Positions 2,422-29,403 of a DNA stretch of 53,181 bases are shown here, in pieces; within the stretch, counting starts at the first letter, position 1; every line of letters begins with the position of its first letter. Under the pieces are notes generated by a model. The model saw only the letters and a program-made list of their open reading frames with translations, did no database searches and was not told where the DNA came from. A program made the translations under genes and the position numbers. This stretch comes from Psammoneis japonica (lineage: Eukaryota). The DNA is taken from positions 186,001 to 239,181 of the forward strand of contig QPGO01000135.1 in the NCBI GenBank assembly GCA_008632985.1, read 5' to 3'.

Positions 2422-2599
2422 TGCAACATCCAGCTGCTTACAAGAGCCAATGCATCACGGCGACGTGTCACAGCCTTTAAAAGTCACAAAGGTCATGACA
2501 AAAATGACCTTTTGTGTGCATGCATTCTGCATTGTGAATTCACAGCAGAGTGGTTCATCACGTAACCATTGGGCAGAAGGCCAGGGGTTCGAAACTGAG
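2422..2599 (+). mobile_element. Truncated TRIM copy (110-bp LTR 2422-2531 plus tRNA-like A/B-box segment)
   Basis: Aligns with 24146-24325. TG...CA LTR, followed by CAGCAGAGTGG (A-box-like) and GGTTCGAAAC (B-box-like). Interrupted at 2600 by a Copia LTR. Confidence 0.75.
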
Positions 2600-2779: not shown

Positions 2780-3269
2780 CTTTGTCAGAGCCAATGCGCT
2801 GTGATGTTCATCACCTGGAATGGGCATCACGGATGGTGCAACGGCATCATTGCAATCGATTTTTGCAGCAAGCGCCATGTTGGTCCCATGGTTGCTCGTG
2901 CAATCGCTGAGTCCTTTGTGCGCACATCAACATTCATGGATGTGAACGACATGCTCTTGGAGACCAGAGCTGTGATCCGTCAAGTGGATGGAACATGTTG
3001 GCAAAGACACACAAACATTCGTGATAAAGACAACACAATGGTTTGTGCATTGAGGTCCATTGTTTGACTGTGTCGTTTAACCAAAATGCGTTGTCAAACT
3101 GCTTGGACAACATACATGTGGATGCATGTCTGTTGGAAATTATTGCTCAGGGGCAATCTTGCCTGCTCGCGAGTTTGCCAAGTAGAAACTGCCAAATCGG
3201 CACGAGAACCACACATTTTTCTCATTTTTCTCCCCTCACACAAGTGGATGCTCACGTGTCGAAACGCGA

Positions 3270-4603
3270 GTGACTGTTGACATACCTGCCGCAGCCTTTA
3301 CTGCTTGTCTTACACATTGTGGATACAATGCGCAGACACGTGCCTGCACAGCCGCTCATGGCTTTGCTGCTGTCCAGGACCTGGAACAGGTCCCTTTAGC
3401 AGAAATTGCCACAATGACCAAGGGTGTTATGAAGGTCATGGATGCCACCGCCAACCCTCAAGTCTGCTTCCCACACCTGGCGAATCGCAAGTTCAAGGCC
3501 CTGCATGCATGGACTGACTGCTGCAGAGCCCGAAATCAACAGCCAACTCCCGCTCTCTTTGCTGGTGACACTGTTGGGACATGGACGGCACGTCTCACGG
3601 AATTGGAACAACTCAAGTCAGCGGATTCGGATGTCAACTCGGTGACCAAGATGGTTGTGGAACTCAAGAATCTACATGACTGGCCCACCTTCCAAGAGTT
3701 GCTGGAGACTGAACTGCACCACCACAGCAGCACTGTCACTGGAGCACCCCTCATCTACCTCGTTGGGGAGCATGAAGAAGTCACCGACAATGTGTTGGGT
3801 GCTGCCTGCTCTGCCATTGACGAAGACCTTGTTGCCACTGCCCGACTTGCAGGAGCACAGCACACACAGGACAGGCAATGCCTGTGTGATCTCCTGAAGA
3901 AGTCAGTGACAGGCGGGCCTGGATGGGCTTTTGTCAAACCTTCCAATCGCAGTTGCGATGGTCGTGCTGCCTTCTTTGCACTGAAGAGACAGGTGGAAGG
4001 ATTGGCTGCCACCACCACCCACAAGAACCATTCTTGTGCACAGATTGCTGCCGCAAAGCACACCGGATGGGGTCGTTTTACTTCTGACCAGCACATTCAA
4101 TGCCATCAGAAGGCCCACAACAACTTGTCGGAGCTAGATGAACCAGCAGCCAAGACCAAGAAGGTCTCTGACTTTCTCAAGGGCATCTCCGACCCCAGGT
4201 TGGAGACTGGCAAGAGTGCAGTGGACGGTGATCCGGTGAAGCTAGCAGATTTCAAAGCATGCCAGCAGTGCATGAAGACTCTGGTGGAGAATGCCAAGAA
4301 CCACAATGCCGACACTCGCGGAACAGCACCCGTCCAACGCCGCAACAACCAGTGTGGAAACCCTGGTGGCAAGCACCCACCTGAGAAGGACAAGCCCAGG
4401 ATCCGGGCAGGCCATTGTCCTGTTGATGAGTGGAATGCTCTCGACAGTCCTGAGCAGGAGCAAGTTAAGAAGCTCCACGAAGCCAACAAAGCCAAGAAGA
4501 AACACAAAGCAGCAGCTGCATCTTCGGAGGCTGAGTCGGCCGATGCCGAAACTCGTGCTGTTAAAAAGGTGGCTAATGCTGAGCCTGAACCTGCTGATGA
4601 ACA
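3270..4603 (+). pseudogene. gag: Copia family A gag (CoDi-like), hypermutated and 3' interrupted
   Basis: 450-aa ORF with 'GPGWAFVK...DGRAAFFALKRQ' and 'KKVSDFLKGISDPRL', typical of diatom Copia gag. Only 2 Tyr. Runs into an inverted LTR at 4604. Confidence 0.75.
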
Positions 4604-5554
4604 TGAACAAACACCACCATGACAGCTGAGAATTGGGTGCAAGACAAGACAGAGTGTTGAACAGCATCATCAGGTTCTAGAATTGTGAGATGTCATGCTG
4701 CCGAGGCCACCAAATGAGCAATGGTGGACCAATCGCCAATGGTGCATAAACTGCCTACATTCGTGACAGTGTGTCAGCATTTTTTCAGTCCCCTCAAACT
4801 GACACTGGCTCCGCTTGGGCCAGATCGACAGACAAATGCAACCTGATGCTGCCCCATTCCAGGGCAGTGTTTTCATTTTGGGGATGGGAAAAGCTGCACC
4901 TGCATGGCAAACCTGTTCGGTTTGTCCCCTTTTGGGACTCACCACAGGACATGACTTATGATTTCCCGGAGCTTTGGTCCAGGCAACAACTCAGTTAGCA
5001 CGTCCACTAAATTCGTGCTTCCGTCTTCCCAAGCAATGCACACTGTTCCAGTGGCTTGTGCCTCACGAGTCCTGTGACAGGCAATTGCATTGTGCTTCTT
5101 CTTCAAAGTGGACTCTGGTGTAGTTGAGTTCTTGAAGACAGCCTCATTGTCACAGAAAACGTCAGTGGCCCCATCCATGGGGATTCCGAGCATCCGAAGC
5201 TTGTGATGCAAGGCTTCAATTTGCTCCACTGCAGTCTTCATAGCCACAAACTCCGACCCAAAAGTAGAGGACTCTGCGGTGTTCTGCCGCTTAGAGTGGC
5301 ATAAGATGGGCACTCGTTGGATAAATGTCAGGATCCCAGTGTGGGACCTGCGCGTCACACGGCATCCGGCGTGATCAGCATTGACAAAGCAAGCAGTGGT
5401 CACGCCATTCCCGCGTGCCTCCGGCATGTTCGGCTGCATTGGTTCAGCTGCACCAGGGTGACATTCTTCCCAATCGCACTTGGTAAAAGGACTCTCATCA
5501 AAGACAGGCTCAGTGTGGTTGAACACTGGCGCAGACTTAGAGTGAGCCTTCAAG
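4604..5554 (-). mobile_element. 3' end of Copia family A in reverse orientation: RNase H (4939-~5550), PPT (~4789-4799), 3' LTR (4604-4787)
   Basis: ORF 4939..5571 has 'FVNADHAGCRVTRRSHTG', 'ESSTFGSEFVA', 'FCDNEAV', 'LKKKHNAIACHR'. Minus-strand tttgagggga lies just before the LTR. Confidence 0.85.
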
Positions 5555-5740
5555 TGCTGTCCCATTTGCAATCAAGTGCCAAGCTTCCTGTCTGGTCTGC
5601 AGAGTTGTGCGGGCACGTTCGAACCCTTGGCTGTTGATGCCTTGGGTTGCTTGAGAGCAGAGCAATGGGTTGTAAACCCCTGCTGACAAGCCAACCAGAG
5701 GTGGACAAATCTGACAGAATTTGAACAAGAATGACTCACT
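5555..5740 (-). repeat. Deleted LTR fragment of Copia family C
   Basis: 5555-5708 aligns with 15176-15335 and, inverted, with ~29122-29278. Confidence 0.65.
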
Positions 5741-15040: not shown

Positions 15041-15175
15041 TTGCAACTGGGTGGGTGTTGGGACTGGCTAGAGTGGGAGGGTGAGCTTGAAATAACTTGA
15101 AACTTGACTTGAATCTTGACTTGAATCTTGACTTGAAGTCTTGAACAATCTTGCAAGTCAGAAGCCACCGGGCTG

Positions 15176-16400
15176 TGATGTCCCATTTGCAGTGAAGTGC
15201 TGAGCTTCCCATCCAGTCCATGGAGTTGTGCCGGCACATCCAAACCTGCAGCTGGCGATGCTTTGGGTTGTCTGAGAGCAGAGCAACGGGTTAAAAACCC
15301 CTGCATCTGCTGACAAGCTAACCAGAGGTGGACAAGGCCTCCAAACCGTTGTCATTTTGCATTGGTTGGACAACCCGATCAGGCCGGCCAAATTTGGCGC
15401 TGTGGATGGACAAACAAATGTGGGAAATGCACCCTTGCCCCAATGCAGGCTACAATCACGAACTGCTTCCTCTCACAGTTTTCCTCGTGGACCTTGCAGG
15501 ACTGTAGAAGACCAGCAATCCGGTGTAGATACGAGGCGGTAGACTTGGCGTACGTGGAGCAAGGCCAGAGTCAAGGGTTTGTATCGTGTGCATGTGGACG
15601 TGAGCGGATGGATTGGTCTCTCTGCCAACCAGGGTAGAGTCCGCCATGTGGAATCCAGAATCTCGGATGTCTGAGAATTTGGGAATTCCTGACCAAACAA
15701 ACATCCGTTGAATAAATGTGTCCAATGATGGGAGGCATTGGATAAATCCAAATGCACAGATTTAAGGCTGGATCGATGTTTAGCGGCATTTTTTTAAACA
15801 GCTCGTGATTCTACAATTTGCTCCTCGCACTTCGCCCGTGTTATTTTGCGATGCATCTGAGCACCCCCAAACACTTGTGTGTGTGTCTAGCCCCCATCAG
15901 GGCTGTTAGACCTTGATATGAACTACACTTGTCAACCTTCAAACGCCAATTATTGCATTGGGTGCGGTTGCCACATTCGACAAACCGCTGTTTTTCGCCA
16001 AAATCGGACTGTTTGTGGTAGATGAGCTGCAACTTTCCAGGAAAGGCCGACAATTGGCGTTTGACTGGCTGCAGACATGTCTGCGGTCGTCATTCTAGAG
16101 ATCCCGAACCTTCACATTCATTGTGCATGCATTCCATGACATCTTGCGAATGGACAAAGTTCGACCCATCGCTGAACATGTTTTTGGCGAACGTGCGCAT
16201 TGTCAGTGTGAAGAATCCGGGTTGTTTTTAAACATTTACGAGTTCTAATGAAATCGACCACCAAACATCGATCCATCCTTAATCCAGCATCCAGCAGTGA
16301 AGAAGGTAGACACATGCTTCCACCGCCAACCGTGTGCATCATCGAAAAATTTCTCGACAACAATGACGAACGCTCAATGGACAAGAATGAGCATCAGAGG
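15176..16400 (-). repeat. 5' LTR of Copia C (copy 1), interrupted by a MITE and truncated
   Basis: Collinear (inverted) with 28600-29278 once 15762-16278 is removed. Confidence 0.65.
15766..16278. mobile_element. MITE (513 bp), 16-bp TIR, TTAA target-site duplication (Kolobok-like GG...CC ends)
   Basis: TTAA|GGCTGGATCGATGTTT ... AAACATCGATCCATCC|TTAA. The empty site (ggaTTGAatc) is present in the paralogous LTR at 28699-28708. Confidence 0.85.
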
Positions 16401-23700: not shown

Positions 23701-26700
23701 ACATCCTGACTCTTGTGCAATCGATGCCGTGTGACAAACTTGCATGTCCCCAGGTCATGGAATTTGAGGATGCAGTCAATGTTGCAGTCCATGCAACAGG
23801 CACCATTGTTGGGCAATGACAGATGTTCATCAATGAGGGCAGATTAGATCTGTGGGTGACAGTGTGCATGGACCTTAACACAACCATGAGAGTTCTCTGC
23901 GGGCATGCGAAGGTGTCCAAAACCAACCAGTGCAGCTTCATGACCAAGTGCTGGGTTGACAGCAAGTGGACACAGGTTCTCTGGTGTGAATTCCTGATGT
24001 CGATGAAGGAGGTCATGGTTGCCAGTGCACACAATGTCAGCACCAGTGTCCAACAGAGCACATCCATTTGTTGGGGACAAACTTGACTGCATTGACTTGA
24101 AATGGTGCAGGTTCTAATTCTGGTGCAGTGGGTTCAAAGACCTTTTGCAACACACAGCTGCCAACAAGAGTCGGTGTATCACGGCGACATGTTACAGCCT
24201 TTAAATGTCACAAAGGGCGTGACAAAAACAACCTTTTGTCTGCGTGCATGCTGCATTATGAATTCATAGCGGAGTGGTTCATCACAACCACCAGGCAGGA
24301 GGCCAGGGGTTCGAAACCCTGAGTGGGAGTTGTCTGCAGCAACGTTGATCACTGTCGAACGCGTAAAACTCCGTGCAGTTCTGTGTGTTCCTTCGTACAT
24401 ACCCACACTGTTCCGCCAAAACCGTGCAGTGTCAGTGCACGTTAGTAAAGAGCCGCATGGACGCGTGACACATGGGGAGGAGTGCAACACACAGCTGCCA
24501 ATGAGAGTCAATGTATCACGGCGACGTGTTGCAGCCTTTAAATGTCACAAAGGGCGTGACAAAAACAACCTTTTGTCTGCATGCATGCTGCACTTTGACA
24601 GATCATGCAGGGTGATGTGAACAGAATTGATTGCAGCAAAGCCATCTTCAATTGCCATGTCATTGCAGGCAAGATCAATGAACTCTGCTTGATCATGGGG
24701 ATTGCAATCATCCCTCCCCTGTTCCAAAGAGTTTGGAATGTGAGCATCAGCCTGTTCATGCGGAGACACAGCTGGATCATCATCGGGAAGCTTTGGGGCA
24801 TCCAGAGGAACTGACAGGTCTGGATTGTCAGCACTGTAGAAAGAGGCAGCACAGTGGCAGGTGACAAGACATTGTGTCCCTCTTTCACAGGCACCCTGCT
24901 GACATCTGTCTTGTCTTGGTGCATGGAGAATGGGCTGCATTGGAGATCCAAAACCAGCTGCCATGGCCCAATTGAAAATCCGGAGACTGGGTGCCGGGCT
25001 TGGGTGGGTTGTCCTTGTGTTCCTGGTGTGGCAGCAATGAATCTTGAGGTCCTTGGAATTCAGAAGAATGCAAAGCTGCTTCCCTTTTTAGGAACTGACA
25101 AATGTGCATGTGGAAACCCTTGATGTGTGGGTTGTTGTTCAAGACAGGGCACTCATGAAACAAGTGTTTCTTGGAACAAATGACACACGGTTTCTTGGAC
25201 ACCTCCTGTGGAGTGACCTTCAGCTTGCACACAGAAGCCAAGTGGACATGATGGAGGAGACAATCCTCATCTGCAGGTGGCATGTCCATGCCAGCCAATT
25301 CGTCACAAAGGGTGTCAAAGGTGTCATTTGGTGGATCATCCACATCATTGGGTGTCTCATCTGAATCATCCTCAATGGGAGGAACATCCAGAACAGACAA
25401 GGCATTGACATCAACAGCTGCACATCTAGGATCCTCCTGATTCTGCTCCCATTTACGGCAGGATTTGCAAGGATTCGTGTGGGTGGTGACTGAAGGACTG
25501 TCAGGTTGACAAAGGAAGTCAGACAGGGTCTCAATGATCTGAGCATCTGTGTGCTTCTTGAGCATGGCCAGGGACTTCCATTCATCATGTGTGGTGTGAG
25601 ATAAGAACTTGGAGCATTCAGTGTTTGTGATGAAGACAGTCATCTCTCATGGATCATCCAACGTGGAGTCCATGTCAAAGACATGAGCACACAACTGCAG
25701 GAAAACTTTGAAAACAACATGGTGGTCAGCAATGATGGGTTGCCTCAAGCAGGGTGAGAATCCACCAGTCATCCAGCAGCTTCGTGATCAAATGCTGGAT
25801 GATTCTTGTGTGGAATCTGCTTGAGAGCCTTGCATCCATTGCCACAGCATGAGGCAACAATGTGATGACACCTGCTGTTCTTGGGGAACACATCCGCCTT
25901 GGATGGAATCTTGTGGAGAGAGCTCTGGGCTTCTTTGCAATGCACACACATGCATTGGGGCAAGTTGTCATCCTTTCCATTTCTGATCATAAAACCCTGC
26001 TCACCACCTTGATCCTTGGTGAAACACCACACAGGATGGATGCAGCATCCAGAGTCAAAAGAGTGACATTTTGGAAATTTTGAAACCATGCCCGCATCCC
26101 AGCGGGAGAGTTGTCATGACATGTTGGTGGTTCTCCAAAGAACATCTTTTGATCAGGAGTTGAGCTCATGATGAAGAGCATGCCATCATTGAGAATGATG
26201 TGGTCAGAGGCATCAATGTGATGATGGAACATCCATGGTCATAATGAATGAGTGAACGCTTCAGGGCAACATCACTGCGTTCCTTGCGGTCATGGTGTGC
26301 ACATACATCCTTGGGTGCAGTGTTGGTGTTGAAGAGGCACTGTGATGTGATGGATGATGTGGCACCTTCTGATGTCTTGGCAGCAGCAGTTGAAGGTGGA
26401 GTGTGGCTCATTGCAAACTTGTGGAGGGCTGCTGCTAAATCATTCACACCAACAGTCACAGCTCCTGTGCCAGTCAAGGATGAGGGTGTAGATGGCATCT
26501 TTTGCTGGCAGGGAGGAAGGGAAAACTCTTTCCAATCTTCATAATTCCATGTCATGCAAGGATCAACATGGATGTGTTGCATGGACATGACAATGAAGAG
26601 AGACTGATCATGATTCTGAAGGTTCAGCTTGATTGTGGATGACAGAGCTTCTGGTGTCAAATGAATTGCACGAGGCCTGTTGGGGTCCACAATGCAAAAC

Positions 26701-28335: not shown

Positions 28336-29278
28336 TGACAGGATTTAAACAAGATTTTAGTTTATTGCACATAATTGTGTGCTCTTAGTTCCGCACGCGT
28401 CACGCGATGTAGTTTGCTTTCGAGCCACACGGCTCACAAGAATGACAACAGCAGTGCTGACATCAACGACACCAGTCTTTCGGCTCCTGCAACCGTCTCT
28501 GCACGGAGACTCATCTGCCATTTAGACAGCAGCAAGGAGCAATTGTTTTCTTCCATCCAGTCATCTTCAATTTCTGTCAGATTAACAGTCTCGTTCAATT
28601 TCATCCATTGAGTGTTCATCACAGTCATCGAGAAAATTTCAACGACGCGCATCGTTGGTGGTGGAAGTACACACCCACCTTCTTCACTGCTGAATGTTGG
28701 ATTGAATCTTTACGTTTGGATTTGTCCAACACCTGCCGTCCTTGGATGTGTTTATTCAACGTTGGTCAGGAATTCCCGAACTCTCAGACATCCGAGATTC
28801 CGGGTTCCCTGCAGCAGATTCTACCCTGGTTGGCAGACAGACCAATCCATCCGCTAGCCTTCACGTGCACACAATATAATCGTCTGACTCTGGCCCTGCC
28901 CCATGCACGCCAAGTCTACTGCCTCGTATCTACACCGGATTACTGGTCTTCTACAGTTCTACAAGGTCCACGGGGACGACTGCGAGAGGAAGTAGTTAGT
29001 GATTACAGCCTACGTTGGGGCAAGGGTGCATTTCCCATGTTTGTTTGTCCCTCCACAGCACCAAATTTGGCCGGCCCGATCGGGTTATCCAACCGACATA
29101 AAACAAGAATGGTTCAGAGGTCTTGTCCACCTCTAGTTAGCTTGTCAGCAGGGGTTTTTAACCCGTTGCTCTCCGATCTCAGGCAACCCAAAGTGTCACC
29201 AGCTGTGGGTTCGGACGTGCTGGCACAACTCTGCAGACCGGACAGGAAGCTTGGCATTTAATTACAAACAGGACATCA
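28336..29278 (+). repeat. 5' LTR (~943 bp) of Copia C copy 2
   Basis: Starts TGACAGGATTT, like the PPT-adjacent copy at 10332, and ends ...GGACATCA about 125 bp before the gag ATG. The 3' end is supported by the fragment ending at 5555. Confidence 0.65.
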
Positions 29279-29403
29279 TAGCCTGGCGGCTTCTGACTTG
29301 TGAGATAGTTCAAGACTTCAAGTCAAGATTCAAGTCAAGTTTTCAAGTTGTTTCAAGCTCACCCTCCAACTCTGGCTAGTCCCAACACTTGCCTGGTTGC
29401 AAC

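Follow-up and report, generated by a model that had tools for sequence, protein, structure and literature searches.

A miniature LTR element of Psammoneis japonica with a tRNA-like head and the palindromic, putative primer site of a Ty3/Gypsy group

The 447-bp jumping element in the window (the whole 53,181-nucleotide stretch of Psammoneis japonica DNA analysed here, from contig QPGO01000135.1) is best explained as a miniature LTR element (TRIM) that is moved in trans by a palindrome-type Ty3/Gypsy group, that is primed by RNA dimers without a tRNA and onto which a tRNA-derived Pol III promoter has been fused. We give this reading as a whole a probability of about 0.6. The element is copied in the manner of LTR elements, with a 4-bp target-site duplication (TSD) and with Gypsy-type ends, polypurine tract (PPT) and palindrome. 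From its sequence, the tRNA-like head behind the 5' LTR is best read as a putative promoter and not as a primer.

Structure and copies of the element

The features of the element, which occupies positions 24146-24592, are collected in Table 1. A sequence-only reading of the window had described 110-bp TG...CA LTRs, a PPT, a CTTT TSD, a palindrome overlapping an A box and a B box within a T-arm-like hairpin, and each of these lies exactly where it was placed. That reading had also assigned the element to the TRIMs, and rightly: it is shorter than 1 kb, has two LTRs (93.6% alike), a PPT, a TSD and dispersed copies, regenerates its LTRs by reverse transcription, and is non-coding in that it holds no ORF of 150 aa or more. 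The remaining TRIM feature, a tRNA primer-binding site (PBS) after the 5' LTR, was not found against 43 host tRNA entries, a set that lacks Tyr and Ile. Shuffled sequences fold as well as 24246-24482 does (z 0.55). SINEs derived from tRNAs have no LTRs, a TSD of variable length and a simple-repeat or LINE-like tail; the fixed 4-bp TSD and the LTR at both ends rule out such an identity.

Table 1. Positions of the TRIM features within the window
Feature	Position	Strand	Remark
Left TSD, CTTT	24142..24145	+	exact 4-bp TSD in 57 of 69 full copies
5' LTR, 110 bp, TGCA...TGCA	24146..24255	+	contains TCACAA (24208-24213) and T4 (24234-24237)
Spacer T (1 nt) and 12-nt palindrome TATGAATTCATA	24256..24268	+	primer-site position; register as in the Gypsy group
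Palindrome proper	24257-24268	+	perfect 12-mer in 47 of 69 copies
A box TAGCGGAGTGG	24267..24277	+	bases 1 to 4 or 5 coincide with the Gypsy junction (last palindrome bases, then GC/GCG)
Decayed 3' side of D arm, shortened anticodon arm, variable loop	24278..24303	+	nearest host tRNA-Glu/Asp
T-arm-like hairpin CAGGG-GTTCGAAA-CCCTG	24304..24321	+	encloses B box, 24307-24317
Non-coding internal body	24322..24473	+	same-strand T4 absent from all 69 copies; overall fold not significant
PPT GGGGAGGAG	24474..24482	+	resembles PPTs of palindrome-type Gypsy elements
3' LTR	24483..24592	+	earliest potential Pol III stop downstream of the head: T4, 24571-24574
Right TSD, CTTT	24593..24596	+	duplicate of left TSD
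Second, truncated copy	2422..2595	+	LTR 2422-2531, palindrome, altered A box 2543-2553, B box, up to 2595

The 18-nt B-box word has 257 exact matches in the 91-Mb genome (control 0), giving at least 257 TRIM copies; a search with the full element gave at least 45 matches, with 40 of 322 candidates scored. From 90 fetched loci 69 distinct full copies were drawn. None has a TSD of 5 or 6 bp, and of the 12 without an exact 4-bp match 5 are one base off. A 1-bp LTR deletion occurs in 12 of the 5' LTRs and 12 of the 3' LTRs; 11 copies have it at both ends where 2.1 would be expected, as is typical of LTRs regenerated through reverse transcription. Tandem junctions were seen twice among the 90 loci, with units arranged as LTR-internal-LTR-internal (L016/L079 and L078).

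Most other variation among the copies consists of TA changed to CA or TG. Sister LTRs differ at a mean of 9.8 positions per pair, of which 2.0 lie outside TA/CG-type sites; because the TA changes are mostly unshared between sister LTRs, they arose after insertion. Strong mutation of this kind is seen in all TRIM copies and in the repeats of the window generally. It is biased by context, in that 65 and 59 of 69 LTRs retain the TA of TTTAAA and most other TA sites are changed in nearly all copies; extra A:T to G:C changes dominate elsewhere. The pattern resembles the TpA hypermutation reported for Bigelowiella, as far as the accessible part of that report goes (10.64898/2026.01.13.699255).

For the second copy in the window, which had been read as a diverged element at 2422-2599 retaining both boxes, a correction is needed: its A box has two changes (CAGCAGAGTGG). 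The copy ends at 2595, severed just after the B box by another repeat. With 89-91% identity to other copies it is a truncated ordinary family member; a separate lineage was considered and rejected on that identity, and the copy is not independent evidence of box conservation. The severing repeat is a 186-bp inverted repeat (2594-2779 and 4604-4789) that flanks a gag-like ORF (3186-4622).

The tRNA-like head

The A and B boxes of the TRIM exceed what chance would provide. Their joint score is 27.0 bits with a matrix trained on host tRNAs, which themselves score 18.2-33.3 (n=36), a range inflated by the use of the same 36 tRNAs in training. That score is reached at 0 of 1,812,774 background positions, and at 2 of 1.81 million when the first five A-box bases, those of the junction, are left out. 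The boxes begin 12 nt after the 5' LTR, occur once per element, and read TAGCG...TGG, with G and not Y as the fifth base, and GGTTC. The sequence-only reading had taken them as genuine and had weighed the possibility that other copies lack them; both boxes were called in 64 of the 69 copies, which bears out its view. Searches for a tRNA came back empty: ARAGORN found no tRNA in the window, and Rfam gave no hit there at the gathering score and none on 24100-24650 at E up to 10. The head is therefore no tRNA gene but a relic that resembles a promoter.

Against the 43 host tRNA entries, the head aligns best with Glu and Asp, its local alignment scoring 46.5 compared with a maximum of 44.5 in 200 shuffles; since the one barely tops the other, Glu and Asp are tentative donors only. 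Of the 69 copies, 53 have a distance of 43 from T8 to T54 and 8 a distance of 45; in host tRNAs with a short variable arm it is 44-48. From T8 onward a tRNA-derived body, closest to Glu/Asp, is fused in register onto the junction TAGC(G), and this completes the A and B boxes. The junction of the TRIM and those of two Gypsy relatives (L223/L225) agree at 22 of 26 nt, among them the GCG that follows the palindrome. The A box thus opens with a TAGC(G) that is at the same time an inherited Gypsy junction, and the palindrome belongs to the Gypsy primer site and not to the tRNA head. The fusion may have arisen when the template was switched to the RNA of a tRNA or SINE at the short shared word TAGC(G), which would account for a likeness to tRNA that begins at T8. 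An origin as a SINE/TRIM hybrid is possible. No match to the exact head pattern was found in metagenome contigs, and no free SINE with the TRIM head among 30 loci fetched by LTR+20 nt, all 30 of which run into the internal region. Elsewhere in the genome, contig C310 holds a cluster of diverged tRNA-Thr/Ala-like copies (L059, L067), possibly a tRNA-derived repeat.

The palindrome at the primer site

The sequence-only reading was correct that an ordinary PBS is absent, the longest Watson-Crick run to any of the 43 host tRNA entries (without Tyr and Ile) being 6 nt. It had the tRNA-like part standing in place of the PBS, and in this it was not supported: the palindrome, not the head, replaces the PBS, a conclusion drawn because autonomous Gypsy elements without a tRNA head share the palindrome.

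LTR junctions were read in 40 autonomous loci of this genome and in 20 more, after dropping those in which no LTR pair was found (7 of 40 and 3 of 20); four loci (L156, L159, L162, L190) gave no RT hit and are absent from the tree. Five Gypsy families carry a palindrome one base after the LTR (LTR+2), and no tRNA primer site was found in them. The palindromes differ from family to family (TGTGTATACACA, AGTGAATTCACT, AGTAAATTTACT and TTTGATCAAA, the fifth being present only in TA-mutated forms). These families have the Pfam order RT, RNase H, integrase, their best PDB match is the Ty3 RT, their RT-RNase H is 45-57% identical to that of the L154 family, and their TSD is 4 or 5 bp. Of 31 palindrome sites in this genome 11 are perfect and 20 become so when 1-3 TA-to-CA/TG changes are undone, at a chance rate of 0.15% per site. 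One site (L170) was taken from a separate junction reading and not from the 31-site scan, and one row (L162) among the 32 of the scan was set aside as a chance pattern match.

Relatives of this group were sought with an alignment of seven RT segments, and the best 80 of 542 confirmed candidates (78 metagenome and 2 IMG/VR loci) were examined. An LTR-end motif, one base and a perfect palindrome follow one another in 48 of these 80 (45 12-mers and 3 10-mers), with 12 different palindromes among them. The remaining 90 scored sense-strand motif sites, without a palindrome, are mostly coding DNA and some 3' LTR ends, and in the antisense control a palindrome follows the motif at 0 of 99 sites. An earlier subset scan had been positive in 29 of the 37 relatives with enough upstream DNA; later scans covered all 80. 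Across 43 perfect 12-mers five of the six pairs vary and one is fixed; as these sites were chosen for being perfect, the evidence lies in their rate and variety. A B-box-like word occurs within 110 nt at 1 of 47 Gypsy palindrome sites. A complement of the Tf1 type reaches at most 9 nt within 800 nt upstream in 43 relatives, and a downstream copy of the GalEa type at most 6 shared nt in 43 relative loci.

The TRIM has the features of this group, which is unnamed and defined in the present analysis: the LTR end, the 1-nt spacer, a W-N-T-R-W-W palindrome, a Gypsy-type PPT and the TGCA start. Its PPT and LTR start match those of L273 at 21 of 23 positions. An autonomous partner, for which the sequence-only reading had proposed a search, was sought by a pattern search of the genome for the exact TRIM-like junction, with 0 matches. 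BLAST with the TRIM gave, among the matches listed, only inserted TRIM copies in the 40 autonomous loci, and only junction and PPT words in the 80 relatives. The nearest in cis-signals are the 4-bp-TSD families of L154, with a TRIM-like LTR start, and L161, with a TRIM-like PPT. In a literature search that left Repbase and most subscription papers outside, no published account was found of a palindromic Gypsy primer site or of an internal tRNA head in a TRIM. The main text of Maumus 2009 (PMC2806351), in its accessible part, makes no statement on primer sites, which its supplements may list. Palindromic priming sites of a Gypsy group thus apparently have not been described.

At the other junctions read in this genome Copia families pair with tRNA fragments. 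Several (L134-L136, L142, L143, L146-L148 and L152) have a 13-14-nt primer site that starts at the LTR end and is complementary to the D arm of tRNA-iMet; the pairing stops near nt 24 of this tRNA, the 5' fragment being far below the usual half-tRNA in length. A family at 28580-28595 of the window, with L144 and L145, has a 15-nt site for the anticodon arm of tRNA-Asn and a 5-bp TSD, and L137-L141 have LTR ends other than TG/CA, an apparent 4-bp TSD and an imperfect site for the iMet anticodon loop. Two 8.8-kb elements found by a Gypsy integrase profile (L159, L162), which gave no RT hit with the L154 query, have LTRs bounded by CTTAAAAG...TTTTAAG and a primer site for the 3' end of tRNA-Phe. 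A 155-bp stretch in a Copia leader (29123-29283, 15175-15304 and 5554-5708) has TGTCC...GGACA ends and, in some copies, a B-box-like word; kinship with the TRIM head was rejected, its scores of 24-35.5 being within the shuffle range.

Two tRNA-based primers compete with the palindrome. A fragment of tRNA-Met is a very improbable minus-strand primer, for all that the 6-nt run, in which TTATGA pairs with the anticodon loop in each of the two Met tRNAs, ends at position 38 and starts exactly at the LTR end, and that other elements of this genome do use tRNA-fragment sites. The duplex amounts to only -6.3 kcal/mol at that register and -8.6 at the best one, compared with -24.6 and -30.3 for genuine PBS controls from this genome and -13.8 for the self-dimer of the palindrome. 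The GG of true sites is missing, the palindromes of the Gypsy relatives mostly lack TTATGA while keeping their symmetry, and half-tRNA primers have been found only in Copia according to the accessible part of Neumann 2019 (PMC6317226). Even less credence attaches to the suggestion of the sequence-only reading that the tRNA-like RNA of the element is processed into its own primer. The head does overlap the primer-site position and retains tRNA-like D and T arms; against this, it has no acceptor stem and gives no tRNA call, the palindrome shares a word of at most 4 nt with the following 10-100 nt, the same site serves autonomous relatives that have no head, and no such complementarity is noted for Helenus in the accessible text of Kojima 2024 (PMC10886601). 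Priming through an RNA dimer at the palindrome, without a tRNA, is the probable alternative to both. Counting a G-U pair, the self-duplex begins on its left with the base that directly follows the LTR, and the TRIM LTR holds only a 3-nt complement to the primer site.

Transcription, replication and known systems

Public RNA data contain the stretch in two runs from different studies (word shares 0.12 and 0.05), as contigs at a depth of about 3 that cannot show a start and may be DNA. One contig spans 24251-24519 (257 of 262 nt) and the other matches 24260-24435 as a whole; both align from their first letter, begin in the junction region, and have 2 extra nt between the boxes, which gives the tRNA-like spacing of 45. 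At five sites the longer one still has a TA that survives in only 1-5 of 69 genomic copies, and its indels fall mostly in 24415-24447; differences near the contig ends are unlisted, so the state of the A box is not visible. LTR cover is missing, which is uninformative. Pol III starts 18-20 nt before T8 in yeast, a spacing that predicts a start at 24247-24249. The proximity of both contig starts to this position is a weak hint, and Pol III transcription of the TRIM is plausible from its sequence. That in unmutated copies the boxes would direct Pol III to start within the final 5-10 nt of the 5' LTR seems to us an even bet.

A Pol III transcript would nevertheless meet a difficulty at its end. 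Downstream of 14 of 31 host tRNA genes the first run of T is a T4, and in every TRIM copy a T4 stands at LTR nt 89-92, about 10 nt upstream of the predicted start. An RNA that ended there would lack about 10 nt of the LTR and have no R, so that as a monomer it could not rebuild the LTR; this argues against a Pol III transcript alone as template. It speaks for a different account, in which a palindrome-type Gypsy TRIM is transcribed by Pol II from its LTR and the tRNA piece is carried along as a relic, serving at best in TFIIIC binding or packaging. TCACAA, which we take to be an initiator-like word, lies at LTR nt 63-68, and comparable words occur in this range of the partner LTRs (compared by eye); because TCACAA is present in the LTRs of 69 of 69 copies, as is the T4, ordinary Pol II transcription is possible. 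Moreover the boxes of this young family (A box 0.42%, B box 0.79%) are not clearly better conserved than the rest of the internal region (0.97%), so that selection on them is not demonstrated, and T8 of the A box is altered in 65 of 69 genomic copies. The T8 changes, however, are of the post-insertion TA type, the box score is at the level of tRNAs, and both boxes are kept although the acceptor and anticodon arms are lost; the start of both RNA contigs at the junction, and not at nt 65, also tells weakly against Pol II. On balance this account of the TRIM appears unlikely, if much less so than either tRNA-based primer.

Under the preferred reading, a TRIM moved by the palindrome-type Gypsy group, the element RNA would most likely be packaged by that group, and two packaged RNAs would pair via the palindrome. 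One strand would then be cut at the duplex edge, leaving a minus-strand primer at the LTR boundary; in Tf1 it is RNase H that cuts the RNA to give the primer. The PPT would prime the plus strand, and integration would give the 4-bp TSD. It is doubtful that the Pol III RNA is itself the RNA that is copied: to serve as template it would have to read through the T4 at LTR nt 89-92 or be transcribed from tandem units. With a tandem RNA, a primer at the second of its palindromes could allow a whole LTR to be copied without the first jump. More speculatively still, these steps may amount to a fourth mode of initiation in a widespread Gypsy group, in which two genomic RNAs pair at a palindrome on the LTR boundary and the cutting of one supplies the primer for copying its partner. 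The TRIM might then be a Pol III-driven parasite with a promoter wholly outside the LTR, its RNA starting a few bases before the palindrome and being copied after read-through, or from tandem units without the first strand jump.

Tf1 self-priming needs a complement of at least 10 nt in the 5' LTR. No complement of that length was found in the TRIM or in 43 relatives, which separates them from Tf1. The likeness to Tf1, Sushi and Tcn1 is that of Gypsy elements independent of tRNA (PMC6317226), whose primer is cut from the RNA of the element itself, as would be the case here. The accessible part of Neumann 2019 (PMC6317226) distinguishes three primer types of LTR elements, whole tRNA, half tRNA and the Tf1-type self-primer, and does not mention palindromic sites; a Gypsy group with a freely varying, always symmetric palindrome fits none of the three. 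The nearest parallel for the primer site in the literature, as far as the accessible text shows, is the Conserved Hairpin Site of the GalEa Ty1/copia elements, which have no PBS and a palindrome right after the 5' LTR, with an unknown mechanism and a mention of dimer initiation (Donnart 2017, PMC5445492). The fungal GalEa site is a 10-nt palindrome that includes the last A of the LTR, with a complementary second copy 12-41 nt downstream, whereas the TRIM site is of Gypsy type, covers 12 nt from +2 and has no downstream copy (PMC5445492).

For the head, the closest comparison is with Helenus, known from fungi, animals and one lycophyte, which has a tRNA piece inside both LTRs and a tRNA PBS (Kojima 2024, PMC10886601, accessible part). 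Like Helenus/TRIMp3, the TRIM is a short non-coding LTR element with a PPT and a decayed tRNA piece with boxes A and B, and it shares the 4-bp TSD of animal Helenus, itself mobilised by Gypsy (PMC10886601). It retains boxes A (TRGCY, YGG) and B (GGTTC), and has neither an LTR-internal tRNA piece nor a PBS for a tRNA 3' end or anticodon loop. Unlike that of Helenus, its tRNA piece is single, internal and fused to the primer-site position (PMC10886601); with the piece outside the LTRs and no PBS, identity with Helenus was rejected. Were the head only a passenger, the TRIM would be a modest variant and its interest would rest on the palindrome. In either case its 447 nt condense the cis-acting signals into an RNA short enough for in vitro tests. 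Cassandra, in the accessible parts of its descriptions, has a 5S promoter and terminator inside the LTR, an 18-nt R and a tRNA-Met PBS (Kalendar 2020, PMC7215508; PMC10886601), and read-through of tandem Cassandra units is presumed (PMC7215508). The TRIM resembles it in its Pol III promoter, predicted here, and in its tandem arrays, Cassandra also having read-through transcripts; it differs in that the promoter is of tRNA type and outside the LTR and in having no ordinary tRNA-Met PBS (PMC7215508). The TRIM would thereby extend TRIMp3 to a layout with the predicted Pol III promoter outside the LTR, and raises the question of how a full LTR is rebuilt.
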